Below, piece after piece: positions 11,971 through 62,815 of a stretch of DNA of 64,000 bases. A program made the position numbers and the translations under genes. The stretch's first letter is position 1, and every line of letters starts with the position of its first letter. The DNA lies in contig CALVRA010000001.1 in the NCBI GenBank assembly GCA_944358415.1, positions 33,920-97,919 on the forward strand, in the 5' to 3' direction. The DNA is from an uncultured Bacilli bacterium. GTDB taxonomy: Bacteria; Bacillota_I; Bacilli_A; RF39; UBA660. The notes beneath the pieces were generated by a model that searched no databases, was not told where the DNA came from, and saw only the letters and a program-made list of their open reading frames with translations.

Positions 11971-12837
11971 ATGATAAAATTGGAATGTGGTGATTTAATG
12001 TTAAGTAAATTTGATTATAGTAAAAATTTCATTGAAAATGATGAAATATTGGTATGTCCAATATGTAAAAAGAAATTATATATTAAAGAACATTCATTAA
12101 TGTGTGAAAATGCTCATAACTTTAATCTTTCAAAAAAAGGTATTACGAATCTTGTTTCACATAATCATATTAAAGAAAGCAAAATATATAATTATGATTT
12201 ATTTTTCAATAGAAGATGTTTCATTCAAAAAATGTTCTATCAAAAATTATATGATAAAATTGTCAGGATTATAAATAAACATTTTGATAAAAATATAAAT
12301 ATTTTAGATTTAGGCTGTGGAGAAGGGGCTCATACAATTAATATACTAAATAATTTAAAACTAAATTATAAGTATTATGGCTTTGATTATTCAAAAATAG
12401 CTATTCAAATGGCGAGTGATTATAATTCCAATAATAGATTTTATTTTGTAGGTGATGTTAATAATATTCCTATTAAAGATCATTCTACACATTTAATTAT
12501 TGATATACTTTCACCTTATAATCAGTTAGAAGTTAAAAGAGTTTTAAAGAAAAAAGGATTATTTATTAAAGTATCTCCAGGAAAAAACTATTTAAAAGAG
12601 CTTAGATTAGCTACAGGCATATCTATTTATGATAAAGATACAGAAGTTGAACGAAATTTGGAAAAAAATTTTAAAAAAGTGCGGAAAGAGAATATTTTAA
12701 TTACTTATCCTATTACTAATGAAGACTTTATGCTACTTTTAAAAATGTCGCCAATGCAAAGCGAAAAGATTTTAAATAAGCCTAATACAATTACAATTGA
12801 TTTAAATATATATATTATGAATGGAGAAGAATTATGA
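11971..12837 (+). CDS. RlmA-like SAM-dependent methyltransferase with N-terminal zinc ribbon
   Basis: CPICKKKL...CENAHNFNLSKKG zinc-ribbon and LDLGCGEG SAM motif, as in 23S rRNA G745/G748 methyltransferases. Its stop overlaps the next gene's start (ATGA). Confidence 0.7.
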   Translation: MIKLECGDLMLSKFDYSKNFIENDEILVCPICKKKLYIKEHSLMCENAHNFNLSKKGITNLVSHNHIKESKIYNYDLFFNRRCFIQKMFYQKLYDKIVRIINKHFDKNINILDLGCGEGAHTINILNNLKLNYKYYGFDYSKIAIQMASDYNSNNRFYFVGDVNNIPIKDHSTHLIIDILSPYNQLEVKRVLKKKGLFIKVSPGKNYLKELRLATGISIYDKDTEVERNLEKNFKKVRKENILITYPITNEDFMLLLKMSPMQSEKILNKPNTITIDLNIYIMNGEEL

Positions 12838-14150
12838 TTTCTAAATACGCAAATAAAATAAAAATCAAAAAAGATGTTTATGCAATATTTAATAGTTTAG
12901 TTATGTTACCCATTTTTGTTAACGAAAAACAATGTGCAAATATTTTAAATGGTAATATTGATAATTTAACTAATGAGGAAAAAACAGAATTTATAAAAGC
13001 CGGTATAATTATAGAAAATAAAGAAATTGATAATCAACTTTTAAATACACTAAAATCAGCACGTGAGCAATATATGAAAGAACATATCACTATAATGTAT
13101 ATTATTCCTACAAATACTTGTAATTTAAGATGTAAATATTGTTTTATAGGTAAACTTAATGATAAACCAATTAAAATGGAAGAAAGTACTTTGATTAAAG
13201 CCATAGAAATGTTTAATAGTCATTTAGAGAAAATAGGCGAAAAAGGGACTATATTTCTTTACGGAGCAGAGCCATTATTAAACTTTGATTTAATTAAATT
13301 AGGGGTTTTATATGTGAAAAAGCAAAATTATAATATTCAATTTTCTATGGTATCAAACGGAATACTTATAACTGAAGAAATAGCAGATTTTATAAAAAAT
13401 AACAACATCTCATTAGGAATTTCCATTGATGGTCCAAAAGAAATTACTGATGAAAATAGAATATTTAAAAGTAACAACAAAAGTGTGTACGATTTTGTTT
13501 TAAACAAAATAGAGTTATTAAAAGAAAAAAACGTTGATTTTGGTTTATCAATTACAATAGCACCTATTTTTCTTGAAAATGAAGACTATTTTCTAAATTG
13601 GATTTCTAAACTAGGAGTATATAACATTAGCTATAATTTATTACATTTCACTACTAAAACGGATGAATGGAAAGAATATTATAAAAAAGCAACTAAATTT
13701 ATTTATAAATCTAACAAAAAATTGTTTGATCAAGGTTTTAATGAAGATAGAATTAACAGAAAATATGATTCATTTTACAACAGAATATTTAAATTTAGTG
13801 ACTGTGGAGCGATTGGTGGAAATCAAATAACTGTATGTCCAAATGGTGATATTGAAATATGTCATGGTTATTGGAATTATAAAAGAAAAATTTTACCAAA
13901 CATTAATCAAATTCAATCATTTTCCGATTTATTTGATAATCCTGAATATATAAAATGGTCTAATAATATTACATTAAATAAGAAAAAATGTTTGCGTTGC
14001 CCTGCAATATATATATGTGGTGGTGGCTGTGCTATGCAAGCAAAGGATTTATTTGGTAATGAAAAGGAAATTGATAAACCATTTTGTATATATACTAAAG
14101 GAATGCTTAAAAACATATTAAAAGAGGTTTATGATGATAATATAAATTAA
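12834..14150 (+). CDS. radical SAM / SPASM-domain peptide maturase
   Basis: CNLRCKYC (Cx3Cx2C) cluster. C-terminal Cys-rich SPASM region (CGAIGG..CPNGDIEIC..CLRCPAIYICGGGC..FC). About 85-aa N-terminal extension. Confidence 0.85.
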   Translation: MISKYANKIKIKKDVYAIFNSLVMLPIFVNEKQCANILNGNIDNLTNEEKTEFIKAGIIIENKEIDNQLLNTLKSAREQYMKEHITIMYIIPTNTCNLRCKYCFIGKLNDKPIKMEESTLIKAIEMFNSHLEKIGEKGTIFLYGAEPLLNFDLIKLGVLYVKKQNYNIQFSMVSNGILITEEIADFIKNNNISLGISIDGPKEITDENRIFKSNNKSVYDFVLNKIELLKEKNVDFGLSITIAPIFLENEDYFLNWISKLGVYNISYNLLHFTTKTDEWKEYYKKATKFIYKSNKKLFDQGFNEDRINRKYDSFYNRIFKFSDCGAIGGNQITVCPNGDIEICHGYWNYKRKILPNINQIQSFSDLFDNPEYIKWSNNITLNKKKCLRCPAIYICGGGCAMQAKDLFGNEKEIDKPFCIYTKGMLKNILKEVYDDNIN

Positions 14151-14201: not shown

Positions 14202-14387
14202 ATGAAAATAGCAAAAATTAGTACAACTAACAAAAAATTTAGAGCATCTAATTCTATGGCTTCTACTTGTAATTGTGGAGCTTGCAATTGCAATTGTGGT
14301 AGTGGAAGTAATTGCAGTAATGTTTTCATTTCACATGAAATAACATCATTGCTAAATGCTCAAGTCGATAACATTTTAAAAGCATAA
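14202..14387 (+). CDS. candidate RiPP precursor peptide (six-Cys, Cys/Asn/Gly/Ser-rich core)
   Basis: 61 aa. Strong RBS GGAGGG 8 nt upstream. Core TCNCGACNCNCGSGSNCSN. Immediately downstream of the rSAM/SPASM gene and followed by a terminator. Confidence 0.6.
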   Translation: MKIAKISTTNKKFRASNSMASTCNCGACNCNCGSGSNCSNVFISHEITSLLNAQVDNILKA

Positions 14388-18592: not shown

Positions 18593-18714
18593 TTTCTACA
18601 CCTCCTTGTGGTCTAATTCGGCTTTTGTAATAAAAGCAAGGAGTAAATTAATTACTCGGCTTTGATTATACCAAAATATATTAGAAAAGTAAATATTTTA
18701 TGTTTAAGTTTGTT

Positions 18715-19125
18715 TTAAAATTTTAGTAAAATTTTTTCTATATTTTCTAGGATAGTGTTGATATTAGGGTTATTTTTTAAAATGTTTAATTTATTTGTTA
18801 TTTTGTTTATTTTTTCCTCAATGGTTAAATTATTTGGAATATAATTACTATAATTATTTTGTTTGAATGTTTTTTTAGTTATATCATCTTCAATAATTAT
18901 ATAATTTATTTTGAATTCTTTTAGTTTTGTTATTACTTTATCATAACTATTAGTAGGAAAACCTAGTCTTTTATTATTGTTTATTTCTTTTATTTTATAA
19001 TTAAATAAATTATTTAATATATAGGCATCTTCATTATATGTTTCATAGAATATTCCTACTTTTATTAATATTATGTATTTTGGATATTTGTTTTTATTTA
19101 AGTTATATTTTTCGATTATTTTCAC
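18715..19125 (-). CDS. standalone MutS-domain-I-like protein (candidate DGR accessory, MSL-type)
   Basis: Residues 14-80 align by eye to the MutS N-terminal mismatch-binding domain, including GIFYETY versus MutS GDFYELF (Phe-x-Glu motif retained). Immediately downstream of the TR. Confidence 0.6.
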   Translation of the reverse strand: MKIIEKYNLNKNKYPKYIILIKVGIFYETYNEDAYILNNLFNYKIKEINNNKRLGFPTNSYDKVITKLKEFKINYIIIEDDITKKTFKQNNYSNYIPNNLTIEEKINKITNKLNILKNNPNINTILENIEKILLKF

Positions 19126-19222
19126 AGCTTACCTCCAATTAAAAAAGCAGTATTAAATATTAGACAAAAATATGTCTTATATATGGTACTGCTTTAAAAT
19201 ATATTTTATTTATAGGGAAATG

Positions 19223-19390
19223 GTGTATGGATTTGACTGGGTTCCAGTTCCTCCTGTAATTTGGACATCAGAGGAAAGAGTTATGGCAGGGCGGACCGCG
19301 TTGTTCGTATTGTTCGCGTTGTTGTTGTTGACGTTGCCGTTGTTGTTCACATTGAACACGTTGTTAGAGTTACTAGAATTAGGCGACAAG
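19223..19390 (-). repeat. DGR template repeat (TR)
   Basis: 168-bp copy of the target gene's 3' end, rich in AAC/AAT codons. All but one difference from the VR lie at adenines of this copy (coding strand). Confidence 0.8.
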
Positions 19391-19523
19391 CAAAACAGTC
19401 CAAACATATTAGTATTGCCCCATATATTGTGCCAAAAATATTTTTTCGGCCATGGCGAGGCATTCGCCCCGCTACCAAACTCCTATCGGAGTTTGCGAAA
19501 TCATTCTATCCACTGTTTTATTC

Positions 19524-20453
19524 TTAACTCAAAGTGTATGGATTTGACTGGGTTCCAGTTCCTCCTGTAATTTGGACATCAGAGGAAAGAGTTATGGCAG
19601 GGCGGACCGCGTTGTTCGCAGAGAACGCGTAGGTGCTGTAGACGTTGCCGTAGTTGGTCACCTCGAACACGCGGCCAGAGACACCAGAATCAGGCGACAA
19701 TGTCCACCAAAAACTACTTGAACCAAACATCCAATCACTATTATTACATGTATGAGAATTACTATTATATGTACTGAATGTTTTACAGCTTGTATTTGAT
19801 CCCGCTCTTATATATTCGCTTACGGTTGGTAAGGCTACTTTTACATTTGATGTTGTTCCTTTTTCATCATTTATTTGATCTTGCATATCATTATTATTAT
19901 TTGTTACTGCCCCTGTATAATACGTTGACGTAACTATTTGACTTTGGGCAGTTGATGTTAAACTATTATAATAATCTTTATTCAAATATGTATTAAGACT
20001 TGCTGGACGATTCCAATTATTTGACATTGATGTGTCCCAAACTCTATTATCTATACTTGCATCCCTCATTATTTTTATAGTTCCATCTGAATTTATCGAT
20101 ATGATTCTCCAGCCGGCTTTCTCATTATTAAACGTTACATAATTATTGGGATTGGCTCCTTTATAGGTGTATTTTCCATCTTCATATTCATCTTCATATA
20201 AACCATCTCCTGAGGTTACTATATCTACATTATCTAATATTGTATCTCCGGTTGTTGGTGGGAAACAGACATTATAAAGTTCATCTATTGCTCCTTGGAC
20301 ATTAGTTGATGAAAGGCCACTTGCACTATTATCATATGTTGTTTGATTACTTGGAAAATATGTTGTTGCATATACTCCTACTACAGTAAATAATATTAAT
20401 CCGATAAAAAATCCTATTAAATATTTCTTTGAAAATTCTTTTATTTTCTTCAT
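19524..20453 (-). CDS. membrane-anchored surface protein, DGR target (C-terminal variable ligand-binding-type domain)
   Basis: N-terminal TM anchor. Conserved YDNSASGLSSTNVQGAIDELY module. C-terminal WWTLSP...AVRPAITL region contains the VR. Confidence 0.8.
   Translation of the reverse strand: MKKIKEFSKKYLIGFFIGLILFTVVGVYATTYFPSNQTTYDNSASGLSSTNVQGAIDELYNVCFPPTTGDTILDNVDIVTSGDGLYEDEYEDGKYTYKGANPNNYVTFNNEKAGWRIISINSDGTIKIMRDASIDNRVWDTSMSNNWNRPASLNTYLNKDYYNSLTSTAQSQIVTSTYYTGAVTNNNNDMQDQINDEKGTTSNVKVALPTVSEYIRAGSNTSCKTFSTYNSNSHTCNNSDWMFGSSSFWWTLSPDSGVSGRVFEVTNYGNVYSTYAFSANNAVRPAITLSSDVQITGGTGTQSNPYTLS
19534..19701 (-). repeat. DGR variable repeat (VR), at the 3' end of the target CDS
   Basis: The 3' 85 bp are identical to the TR. 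The 5' 73 bp (19619-19691) carry 21 substitutions, 20 of them opposite TR adenines. Confidence 0.8.
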
Positions 20454-20664
20454 ATAGATTTCCTTTCTAGTTTAGATTTATTATAAATGTTAAGCAGTGT
20501 CGAATGTTGTCTATTATTGTGATATTTTCTATTATTTTCATTATATAATATATATGAGATTTTTGCAATACAATTGCATTACAAACGTAATGTATCATTT
20601 GCTTATTATGTATACTAAAATTGTATTGACATATGCATTATGTTTATAGATAGGAGAGGGATAA

Positions 20665-45079: not shown

Positions 45080-45300
45080 TAAATAAAAAAACATCCTTAG
45101 GATAAGGACGTTTATGAGCGTGGTACCACCTTAATTCGTAAGATTTTCTTACCTTTGAACATATAACGGTGTTTACCGCTTTAGCTTAAATATCGGCTAA
45201 AGTGCTTAGGAGCCATTTAGAGTAGTCACCTTGTTTATTTCCACCAACCATAAACTCTCTATAAAGTTACCTACTTTTCTTTCCTTCACAGCATTTATGG
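45080..45300 (-). promoter_or_regulatory. T-box riboswitch leader (probable Met specifier AUG)
   Basis: Minus strand reads AATTAAGGTGGTACCACGC (T-box consensus) at 45118-45136, followed by a terminator hairpin plus U-run. Stem I begins with an AGAGAG motif. AAAUGG specifier candidate at 45214-45216. Confidence 0.8.
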
Positions 45301-48368: not shown

Positions 48369-49325
48369 TTATTTTATTGTATAGGGATTTGACTGACTTC
48401 CATCTCCTCCTGTGATTTGGATTTCAGAAGAAATATAAACAACTGGTCGAATTGCACCTTCGTATTTAACAAAGTAGTCATTAATTTGTCCGGCTTTTTG
48501 ATTTGTATATCCAAATATGGCAAATACATGATCAGATTGATTGGCATCTGGAGTCAAAGTATATAAATTTTGAACATATGATGTACTATACAACCATGTA
48601 GTATTTTTACAGGTACTATAATTATTATTATATTTACTAAGCGTTCCGCAATTATTTTGATTACTATTACTTCTTAGATATTCTGATGCTGTTATTAATG
48701 CAACTTTATCGTTCCATATTTTTGTTTTCTCATCATTTATTTGATCTGATAAATTATTATTCCTTATTACTGAACCTATACTCCAATCTTTAGATATAAT
48801 TTGATTTTTAGCAGCCACATTTAACCCATTATAATATGTTCCATTTAAATATGTATTTAATGTGGCTGGCATTGTCCAGTTATTTAAAGTGGCACTGCCT
48901 CCACTGCCATTCCAATACATTGCTCCTATCGTTTCATCTTTTATTATTTTAATTATTCCATCACATTCGACTGATATGATTCGCCATGTTTCATTATTAA
49001 ATATTATGTAATTGTTAGGATTTGTTCCAGCAAAAAAATAACGACATTCATATTTGTCTGGATATAATCCATCACCAGTTGTTACTATTGGTACTTTTTC
49101 TAATATTTGAATTCCACCTATTGATGAAGTCTTGCACTCCTTATAAAGCTCATCTATTGCTCCTTGGACATCAGTACTTTGAAGTCCACTTGTTTTGTTA
49201 TCATATGTTACTTGGCTACTTGCAAAATAAGTTGCAGCTGATACTCCTATAGTACTAAAAACTAGGGAAGTTATTATAAAAACGAAAAGTTTGCTATTAA
49301 TAAACTTTTTTATTTTTGATTTCAT
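48369..49325 (-). CDS. membrane-anchored surface protein, non-diversified paralogue of the DGR target
   Basis: Same architecture and many conserved blocks as 19524-20453 (TM anchor, YDNKTSGLQSTDVQGAIDELY, ...IRPVVYISSEIQITGG). No matching TR. Confidence 0.6.
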   Translation of the reverse strand: MKSKIKKFINSKLFVFIITSLVFSTIGVSAATYFASSQVTYDNKTSGLQSTDVQGAIDELYKECKTSSIGGIQILEKVPIVTTGDGLYPDKYECRYFFAGTNPNNYIIFNNETWRIISVECDGIIKIIKDETIGAMYWNGSGGSATLNNWTMPATLNTYLNGTYYNGLNVAAKNQIISKDWSIGSVIRNNNLSDQINDEKTKIWNDKVALITASEYLRSNSNQNNCGTLSKYNNNYSTCKNTTWLYSTSYVQNLYTLTPDANQSDHVFAIFGYTNQKAGQINDYFVKYEGAIRPVVYISSEIQITGGDGSQSNPYTIK

Positions 49326-54981: not shown

Positions 54982-55551
54982 TTATTTAACTATTATTTCA
55001 CTATTTATATAGTTTCCATATAATTCTTTTATATTTGTATCAGAAGTACCGTCTAGATTCATTCTACGAATGTATTGGTAACTATTTGAATAAGCGTATA
55101 TATAATATATATACTGCTGTGTAACATATAAATGATATACATTTTTACTTGTACTTAATCTTACTTGATTATTACCATCTATATCCATTCTATAAATCCC
55201 TGAACTATTAGCATAATATATATAATTATCTTTAATAAAAATACTGGTAGGATTAATACCATATTTTCCAATTCTACTTGTCTTTCCACTATTTAAATTC
55301 ATTTGGAAAATGCCATCTTGGGGTTCTATATAATATAAATAATTATTTAATTCAGTTAAATGGCCACATTGATTATATAACTCATCTATGGCATCTTGAA
55401 CATTGGTTGCATTAAGGCTACTTGCTTTATTATCATATGTTGTTTGATTTGACGGAAAATATGTTACAGCACATACACCTACTATACTACATAATATTAT
55501 ACCTATTACAGTTCCTATTATTATTTCTTTAAAATTTCTTTTTTTTCGCAT
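54982..55551 (-). CDS. membrane-anchored protein: shared N-terminal module plus DUF5050-like beta-propeller repeats
   Basis: N-terminus (TM anchor, YDNKASSLNATNVQDAIDELY) is homologous to 19524-20453 and 48369-49325. C-terminal repeats YIYY..GIYRMDIDG / IRRMNLDG. Confidence 0.55.
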   Translation of the reverse strand: MRKKRNFKEIIIGTVIGIILCSIVGVCAVTYFPSNQTTYDNKASSLNATNVQDAIDELYNQCGHLTELNNYLYYIEPQDGIFQMNLNSGKTSRIGKYGINPTSIFIKDNYIYYANSSGIYRMDIDGNNQVRLSTSKNVYHLYVTQQYIYYIYAYSNSYQYIRRMNLDGTSDTNIKELYGNYINSEIIVK

Positions 55552-62632: not shown

Positions 62633-62651
62633 ATTATCACCTATATAAAAA

Positions 62652-62724
62652 GGTACACACATTTAGAGGACCTTAAGGCTGCTATCTTCCGATTCTGACC
62701 TGGTTCAGCCATAAATGTTGTACC
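62652..62724 (-). ncRNA. ffs: small (4.5S-type) signal recognition particle RNA
   Basis: Minus strand reads GGUACAACAUUUAUGGCUGAACCAGGUCAGAAUCGGAAGAUAGCAGCCUUAAGGUCCUCUAAAUGUGUGUACC. Domain IV core ACCAGGUCAG..CGGAAG..AGCAGCC and a closing helix are present. Lies near tadA/dnaX as in Bacillus. Confidence 0.75.
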
Positions 62725-62815
62725 AATAATTATATTATAATAATTAGAGAAAAATGTCTATATTTTTTTATAAGTTTTTATAAGTTTTGTATGGTTTTCC
62801 ACAGTATTTATTTTT

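Follow-up and report, generated by a model that had tools for sequence, protein, structure and literature searches.

The DGR locus

Within a 64-kb stretch of genomic DNA from an uncultured Bacilli bacterium (hereafter the window), a small open reading frame (ORF) encodes a protein that resembles the mismatch-recognition domain of the DNA repair protein MutS. The ORF lies beside the repeats of a diversity-generating retroelement (DGR), and we conclude that it is not a new system. Rather, it is the intact leftover, in an uncultured low-GC Bacilli lineage, of the known small MutS-like (MSL) class of DGR accessory genes. The coordinates of this and the other features discussed are collected in Table 1.

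The DGR is recognizable from a template repeat (TR) and a variable repeat (VR) that differ at 21 positions, 20 of which are TR adenines. All of these differences fall in the 5′ 90 nt of the repeat (VR positions 19611-19700), where 20 of the 36 adenines and one of the 54 other bases are affected (binomial P ~1e-7). The GC content of the VR is 0.53, versus 0.28 for the window. An original prediction, made from the sequence without database searches, had placed the MSL gene immediately downstream of the TR, and the gene does begin 97 nt after it. Beyond the MSL gene, a short spacer leads to rpsF-ssb-rpsR.

An intact gene for an isolated MutS domain I

The by-eye alignment of the 136-aa ORF with MutS domain I was borne out by profile and structure comparisons, both of which gave significant results. 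Residues 4-71 of the protein match the Pfam family MutS_I (PF01624) with an E value of 4.3e-9 and 37 bits (gathering score 20.6), and a profile built from the window protein and 16 homologues matches residues 17-88 of Taq MutS (1EWQ) in a PDB search (E 8e-4). In the profile alignment, K-V-G-I-F26-Y27-E28 of MSL is placed on Q-V-G-D-F39-Y40-E41 of Taq MutS (with V36 at the start of the motif), and the MSL residues G-F-P fall on the conserved G-I-P loop of MutS domain I. Identity to MutS domain I is ~18-20%. An AlphaFold model made from the same set of sequences has a mean predicted local distance difference test (pLDDT) score of 85, with values above 88 for residues 1-95 and of ~65-70 for a C-terminal two-helix hairpin. 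When this model was compared with the PDB by Foldseek, all 50 of the 50 best matches were domain I of MutS or MutSbeta (top match 1ewq_B, E 1.8e-6, TMq 0.52).

No connector, lever, clamp or ATPase domain (domains II-V) is present in the 136-aa protein, given that Pfam detects MutS_I alone and the model consists of domain I and the two-helix tail. The original prediction had already listed the ATPase, clamp and dimerisation domains as missing, and because domains II-V are absent, the window MSL is not a MutS. The tail (residues 100-136) is a helical hairpin that is kept across the family and is foreign to MutS. We considered whether these ~35 residues might be an Avd-like half-bundle and rejected the idea (hhalign probability 0.2%). 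The protein is basic (pI 9.5), and the family mean is 8.6.

The window MSL retains every residue that is invariant in the family, and the gene is intact in eight of eight conspecific variants. Within the species, pairs of MSL genes differ by 1-3 nonsynonymous and 2-3 synonymous changes (pN/pS ~0.1-0.2, from counts too small for significance). We therefore dropped within-species dN/dS as evidence on selection, since substitutions are too few. The window ORF is an intact gene, and it encodes a MutS mismatch-recognition domain with its base-stacking Phe plus a short helical hairpin.

The original prediction also emphasized an intact Phe-x-Glu motif. This holds for the window protein, whose FYE aligns with F39-Y40-E41 of Taq MutS, and G24, F26, Y27 and E28 are invariant in all 17 of the 17 closest sequences. 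However, the Glu is less diagnostic than had been assumed. Among 128 standalone relatives of 115-160 aa, F26 is found in all 128, and high conservation is likewise seen for G24 (98%), Y27 (91%), D33 (95%), Y43 (97%) and G55-F56-P57 (at least 95%), but E28 is kept in only 53 (41%) and is otherwise replaced by N, I, L, H, R, K and others. In one relative that has bAvd and an RT fragment downstream (L024; locus numbers are used here for individual relatives), the motif reads F-Y-I. Judging from these alignments, the stacking Phe is a constant of the family and the Glu is optional. Canonical MutS requires the Glu of Phe-x-Glu, which couples mismatch recognition to downstream signalling, as illustrated by E. 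coli E38 mutants.

MSL genes are coupled to avd and RT

A word-indexed search of metagenomes yielded 26 MSL homologues, all with MutS_I. Most are ~133-139 aa long, with a few fragments of 74-115 aa or lengths of 165-166 aa. An exhaustive search with a hidden Markov model (HMM) produced 1251 clusters at 50% identity with E<=1e-3 and 355 with E<=1e-10, and the best 150 matches are nearly all 100-150 aa in length and cover the whole profile, tail included. The MSL class is therefore large (hundreds of 50%-identity clusters), and its members are mostly ~135-140 aa. The MSL loci we collected from GTDB genomes and metagenomes have 22-32% GC, and most carry the label 'uncultured Bacilli'. Three contigs labelled 'uncultured Muribaculaceae' (L010, L011 and L012; 25-29% GC) hold the same low-GC Bacilli-type DGR cassette and are probably mis-binned. 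A 2842-aa ORF in a 53%-GC contig (L028:3595-12120) has a MutS_I-like stretch (LVLYQVGNFYEFYGEDA), and is an unrelated giant protein with the same domain.

Co-occurrence of homologues with the reverse transcriptase (RT) gene and TR of a DGR had been proposed as a check on the original prediction, and it is readily seen. Among the 14 distinct lineages with enough flanking sequence, 11 have the order (target)-TR-MSL-avd-RT (L001/L007, L003, L004, L005, L008-L012, L024 and L025). The exceptions are the window species, L006 and L026. The bAvd domain is encoded directly downstream of MSL in L001, L003-L005, L008-L011, L024 and L025, and the MSL, avd and RT ORFs overlap by 4-26 nt. Furthermore, some of the longer HMM matches are fusions in which MutS_I is joined to bAvd (P0047, P0059, P0107 and P0158) or follows RVT_1 (P0172), although the bAvd scores of these fusions are near or below the Pfam cut-off (E 1e-6 to 1e-10) and gene-calling read-through is possible in individual cases. 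Thus, MSL is translationally coupled to Avd and RT, and is sometimes fused to them.

More than one such cassette can be present in a genome, as one metagenome-assembled genome (MAG) has two MSL-avd-RT loci (L010 and L011). In L005, two adjacent tyrosine-recombinase genes (L005:11-2030) lie immediately upstream of TR-MSL-avd-RT, on a contig that lacks a target gene and has an RT truncated at 293 aa.

RNA elements between the TR and MSL

In five relatives that carry RT, the TR body ends with GCGGTCCGxCC and, as revealed by a TR alignment, is followed by a near-invariant element of ~60 nt (CTCTCTAAAACACTATGGTTTATGAACTAATATGGTCATAATGAAAAGATTAGAGA). The post-TR element forms a stem-loop, and two additional stems lie after it, one of them with compensatory changes. 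It is near-identical between loci whose MSL proteins are ~60% identical, and is far better conserved than the neighbouring proteins. No Rfam family covers the element, and an Rfam scan of the DGR region at gathering thresholds found no family. By analogy with the spacer region of the Bordetella DGR, the post-TR element is presumably the RNA part that is used by the RT-Avd complex, and would be a candidate recognition or priming site.

A second structured element lies between the TR and MSL. In the window, as in L001, L003-L006, L009 and L010, there is a hairpin with a trailing T-run whose end lies 12-33 nt ahead of the MSL start. Its position and shape are kept in the relatives, with compensatory changes in L009. 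A simple terminator scan did not flag the window example, which has a long inner loop and stem, yet it looks like an intrinsic terminator or attenuator. If so, the hairpin would end the TR transcript, and only read-through would reach MSL (and, where present, avd and RT). Because there is no room for a promoter between the hairpin and the MSL start, expression of MSL-avd-RT should depend on read-through or attenuation.

The local element has lost its core components

Despite the intact MSL gene, the proteins that make a DGR work are missing. No RT was found in the 64-kb window by scanning for YxDD and SQxxAN motifs under genetic codes 11 and 4, and neither RT nor Avd was detected there by tblastn with the Avd and RT of one relative. 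Profile HMMs made from six RTs and seven Avds of relatives also found neither in six frames of the window (best E 0.39 for RT and 0.17 for Avd), and both proteins are likewise absent from the 10 kb past the low end of the window, such that the span covered extends ~28 kb downstream and 45 kb upstream of MSL. We therefore rejected the possibility that an RT or Avd is hidden in the window.

The post-TR element is gone as well, as the version present in relatives has no match in the window even when up to three mismatches are allowed. In its place, the repeat continues for 77 nt that match the 3′ end of the target gene with 100% identity, up to a stop codon, and this segment holds 21 unmutated adenines. 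With a TR-type 5′ flank and body but a 3′ 77 nt that equals the end of the target gene, the window repeat is a chimera of TR and target, in which the 3′ end of the target gene stands in for the conserved post-TR element. The window also lacks a promoter-like box (GATATGATATGAG) found in relatives. Of the features expected of an autonomous DGR, an A-specific TR/VR pair is present, whereas a DGR-type RT and the post-TR element are absent. The window element is therefore defective and cannot make heteroduplexes on its own. The original prediction had suggested that MSL protects or resolves cDNA:target heteroduplexes, but such a role is not applicable to the locus in its present form, which is without RT, Avd and the post-TR element.

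Other strains of the species show further signs of decay. Strain L033 differs from the window at more than 30 positions within 19979-20556 and at none within 19384-19978, which includes the whole VR. In conspecific loci L014-L020, an insertion sequence (IS) takes the place of the TR and the target paralogues are different, and in L013 an IS lies just after MSL. The former IS (L015:8420-9900; also L014 and L016-L020) encodes a 393-aa DDE-type transposase and has inverted repeats (TACTGGACAGTTTT), and the latter (L013:608-1722), which lies between MSL and rpsF, is of the rve family and has a ~25-bp duplication. We considered whether the 393-aa ORF between the target and MSL in these strains might be a cryptic RT. 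This was rejected, since the ORF has no Pfam hit, its DDE-like motif and terminal inverted repeats mark it as part of an IS, and it is absent from the window. What looked like a second MSL copy in L014 is in fact the 3′-terminal part of a different target gene. Between strains with 97-99% identity in MSL, the target genes at this locus differ by ~40%.

Loss of the core genes is not confined to the window species. In L006, a target gene and MSL are present with no TR, avd or RT, and the region equivalent to the VR has drifted to a GC content of 0.38 (window VR, 0.53; complete L004, 0.49). The L006 MSL is 70-73% identical to those of RT-linked relatives and 68% identical to the window MSL. Because the L006 protein is closer to the RT-linked relatives than to the window protein, L006 and the window species evidently lost avd-RT independently, and we rejected a single ancestral loss common to both. 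RTs are also truncated, frameshifted or interrupted in L005, L008 and L009. The RT gene of L009 is split by a ~3.4-kb insertion (L009:4152-7598), and in L008 avd and RT are each in two frames. Core-gene decay is common in this DGR lineage, although MAG assembly errors are possible for the L008 and L009 cases.

Some features of the window element nonetheless suggest that its inactivation was recent, namely the GC-rich VR, the presence of a single non-adenine mismatch, and a 75-nt part of the TR (19300-19374) that is 100% identical to L005:2116-2190. The MSL proteins of these two loci are ~61-63% identical, and no other DNA is shared. Such identity suggests that the TR either is strongly constrained or was recently transferred or converted.

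Table 1. Features of the DGR locus in the window, and of the post-TR element in relatives
Feature	Position	Strand	Remarks
MSL gene	18715-19125	minus	136 aa; GTG start 19123-19125, TAA stop 18715-18717 (from the ORF list and sequence)
Shine-Dalgarno sequence GGAGG	19132-19136	minus	6 nt before the MSL GTG start; read from the sequence
MSL-rpsF spacer	18593-18714	minus	122 nt; rpsF promoter-like site TTTACT-17-TG-TATAAT; position of avd and RT in relatives
Terminator-like hairpin	19141-19193	minus	AGCAGTA...TACTGCT plus T6; between TR and MSL; -15.9 kcal/mol, z -6.5
Template repeat (TR)	19223-19389	minus	167-nt direct repeat; 5′ flank and AAC-rich body of TR type
Variable-templating part of TR	19300-19389	minus	90 nt
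3′ 77 nt of TR	19223-19299	minus	100% identical to VR 19534-19610 (3′ end of target gene)
Promoter-like site TTGGCA-18-TAATAT	19406-19435	minus	Just upstream of TR; consensus match only
Variable repeat (VR)	19534-19700	minus	3′ end of target gene
DGR target gene	19524-20453	minus	309 aa; N-terminal hydrophobic anchor; Pfam DUF6273
Post-TR element (relatives)	L001:412-470, L003:152-210, L004:7716-7775, L005:2198-2257, L009:2452-2510		CACTATGGNTTATGAACYAATA

The surrounding chromosome

The window is ordinary core chromosome, encoding Mfd, FtsH, BipA, DnaX and MetRS in addition to rpsF-ssb-rpsR. Searches of IMG/VR contigs, GenBank phages and PLSDB plasmids turned up no MSL relatives. Given these core genes and the lack of relatives in the phage and plasmid collections, a phage or plasmid origin was rejected.

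A full-length DUF6273 paralogue (48369-49325, minus strand) shares 48% identity with the DGR target, and a partial paralogue is present at 55186-55494 (minus strand). The full-length paralogue was rejected as a second VR and as a target of the DGR, as its 3′ region has no A-specific match to the TR. Elsewhere in the window, a radical SAM enzyme (12834-14150, plus strand; SPASM-type by size) is followed by a 61-aa peptide (14202-14387, plus strand) with a Cys-rich core (CNCGACNCNCGSGSNC). These look like the maturase and precursor of a ribosomally synthesized and post-translationally modified peptide. A T-box leader preceding the gene for methionyl-tRNA synthetase (45101-45298, minus strand) and a small signal recognition particle RNA (62637-62734, minus strand) are both ordinary.

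Relation to known systems

The original prediction pointed to a small MSL accessory class in DGR surveys, and this class was indeed described by Wu et al. 2018 and is also known from Bacteroides. In that survey, MSL is one of four DGR accessory classes. It occurs in 16 of 372 DGRs, each time together with avd, and is assigned no function; three RTs have MutS_I extensions, and most DGRs lack MSL (PMC5758913). The window ORF belongs to this class, being small, MutS-like and located beside a TR/VR pair, a setting that includes avd and RT in 11 of 14 related lineages. Its 136 aa, and the 131-143 aa of its relatives, lie within the published range of 112-283 aa for these MutS homologs ('Architecture D'; PMC5758913). 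However, the published examples reside inside a DGR cassette with avd, whereas the window copy sits beside a TR/VR pair without avd or RT, and its pI of 9.5 compares with a published 7.2 +/- 1.7. The lineage represented by the window consists of uncultured low-GC Bacilli. The comparison with the 16 published MSLs is based on their published properties.

Among Bacteroides DGRs, Msl is present in Bfr, Bth and Bun, with no function assigned (bioRxiv 10.1101/2024.11.15.621889). These elements belong to a different phylum and their targets are type V pilus tip proteins, in contrast to the membrane-anchored DUF6273 protein encoded here. The original prediction held that the mechanism of MSL had not been worked out, and the literature searched gives none.

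MutS domain I itself (PF01624; Taq 1EWQ, E. coli 1E3M) shares its fold and the G-x-F-Y-E signature with MSL. Unlike MutS, MSL has no clamp, ATPase, dimerisation or MutL coupling, does not conserve the Glu, and carries an extra C-terminal hairpin. Other degenerate DGRs have a TR/VR pair with the A-specific pattern and no RT in cis, as in the window. The window element stands apart from these in retaining a fully intact accessory gene despite the clean loss of both core proteins and the post-TR RNA element.

A possible role in evading mismatch repair

On balance, we lean towards the view that the window gene is an MSL accessory gene whose product acts as a heteroduplex shield tethered to a ribonucleoprotein (RNP), and that it survives here in a recently wrecked element. 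In complete elements of this lineage, MSL heads an overlapping MSL-avd-RT operon that directly follows the TR RNA. It would travel with the RT-Avd-cDNA particle, as suggested by this operon placement and by its fusions to Avd or RT in some organisms. Pairing of mutagenised cDNA with the VR would yield a heteroduplex dense in mismatches at former A positions. MSL might insert its Phe wedge at these mismatches and occupy the sites without signalling repair. Because MSL cannot signal repair, its occupancy would block host MutS from all-or-nothing reversal to the parental sequence. Such a decoy is favoured by a Phe that is universal in 128 of 128 relatives but a Glu kept in only 41%, and by the absence of a connector or ATPase domain. 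In the window, the element would be a recent wreck in which avd and RT are gone, the 3′ RNA element of the TR has been swapped for the 3′ end of the target gene and the VR is no longer rewritten. MSL would be left as an orphan whose expression requires read-through of the terminator-like hairpin ahead of it.

Findings from Bacteroides make a role on cDNA:target heteroduplexes plausible, because deletion of host mutS in B. ovatus increases VR mutagenesis 5-10-fold and leaves the pattern of mutation as it was (bioRxiv 10.1101/2024.11.15.621889). The authors read this result as all-or-nothing heteroduplex repair, in an element (Bov) that lacks Msl (bioRxiv 10.1101/2024.11.15.621889). Engineered DGR systems, like recombineering systems, use dominant-negative MutL or deletion of mutS. 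These interventions are analogous to the proposed role of MSL in function only, as suppressed repair preserves mismatches introduced by cDNA or ssDNA. The MutL(E32K) block is engineered and genome-wide, whereas MSL would be natural, probably local, and would act at the recognition step, and there is no homology between the two.

A broader and more tentative proposal, which we hold to be possible though short of probable, is that MSL is a retroelement-encoded anti-mismatch-repair factor that would be tethered to Avd/RT to cap cDNA:VR mismatches and that would also serve as a stand-alone damper of MutS in lineages that lack RT. If the anti-repair reading is true, then the survival of MSL in two RT-less lineages would argue for such local or global damping.

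Several points weigh against the shield model. The literature searched gave no biochemical or genetic datum on any MSL. An isolated MutS domain I lacks the clamp to which MutS owes its DNA affinity, and therefore mismatch binding by a 16-kDa monomer is an assumption and may be weak. The model also assumes the presence of MutS and MutL in these low-GC Bacilli. The constitutively active Bacteroides elements Bov and Bfi lack Msl, which is a misfit with the simple expectation that MSL boosts output (bioRxiv 10.1101/2024.11.15.621889). The intact MSL genes of two independent RT-less lineages (the window species and L006) hint at a use without RT in cis. Finally, given the GC-rich VR and the 75-nt TR identity to L005, either inactivation was recent or an RT acts in trans.

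Alternative explanations

The second of these options would make the window element a working satellite. An RT-Avd complex encoded elsewhere in the genome or on a phage would diversify the VR in trans through this or a near-identical TR, with MSL as a local helper. The TR-like GC content of the VR (0.53 versus 0.28) and the single mismatch among 54 non-adenine positions are consistent with continued rewriting, as is a TR that is 100% identical over 75 nt to that of the RT-bearing L005 despite MSL identity of ~61-63%. Multiple DGRs can occur in one genome (L010 and L011), and MSL is intact in all eight conspecific variants. Even so, we consider this explanation unlikely. The post-TR element of RT-bearing relatives is absent from the whole window, 21 adenines are unmutated in the shared 77-nt segment, and no RT is found from ~-28 kb to +45 kb. 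Moreover, a second strain has the same VR despite upstream differences, and the TR has been lost to an IS in other conspecific strains.

We see a similarly small chance that MSL has a task within the RT-Avd particle, where its substrate would be the TR-RNA:cDNA hybrid and not DNA:DNA heteroduplexes. It might, for example, stabilise primer termini left mismatched by misincorporation opposite A, or aid cDNA priming or hand-over, in each case unrelated to host mismatch repair. The Avd and RT fusions and the overlapping ORFs argue for RNP membership, a dispensable Glu suggests a substrate or task unlike classical mismatch verification, and the protein is basic (pI 9.5; family mean 8.6). However, the RT-Avd complex of Bordetella carries out A-specific mutagenesis without any MSL, and MutS domain I reads mismatches in B-form DNA and is not known to read RNA:DNA hybrids. 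Most DGRs lack MSL (PMC5758913), and its retention after RT loss would be left unexplained.

Less probable still is that MSL is a pro-repair adaptor, which would mark the heteroduplex and bias removal to the parental strand to fix the new sequence. MutS acts on DGR heteroduplexes in an all-or-nothing manner, evidence that the choice of strand matters, and MSL has the same fold and Phe wedge as MutS. Yet the protein has no connector and no recognisable module for binding MutL, a clamp or a nuclease, since only a 35-aa hairpin is extra, and the Glu is lost in 59% of relatives.

We give least credence to a DGR-independent job for the orphan MSL, such as general damping of MutS or recombination between the diverged DUF6273 paralogues shuffled at the locus: an intact MSL after loss of avd and RT in two independent lineages (the window species and L006), a within-species pN/pS of ~0.1-0.2, target genes ~40% different between strains with 97-99% identical MSL, and the DUF6273 paralogues at 48369-49325 and 55186-55494 would fit, but the pN/pS rests on a non-significant 1-3 nonsynonymous and 2-3 synonymous changes per pair, persistence may merely reflect recency and gene order, MSL lacks its own promoter and follows a terminator-like hairpin, and 11 of 14 lineages are DGR-linked.

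Implications

As a broken element in an uncultured organism, the window example is a poor experimental model. What it contributes is comparative facts about the MSL class rather than a surprise, namely the size of the class, its coupling to Avd and RT, the universality of the Phe, and the ability of the gene to outlive the rest of its element. Host MutS erases most homing events in Bacteroides (bioRxiv 10.1101/2024.11.15.621889), and MSL is the obvious candidate for how some DGRs cope with this erasure. MSL could also replace dominant-negative MutL in engineered DGR mutagenesis.

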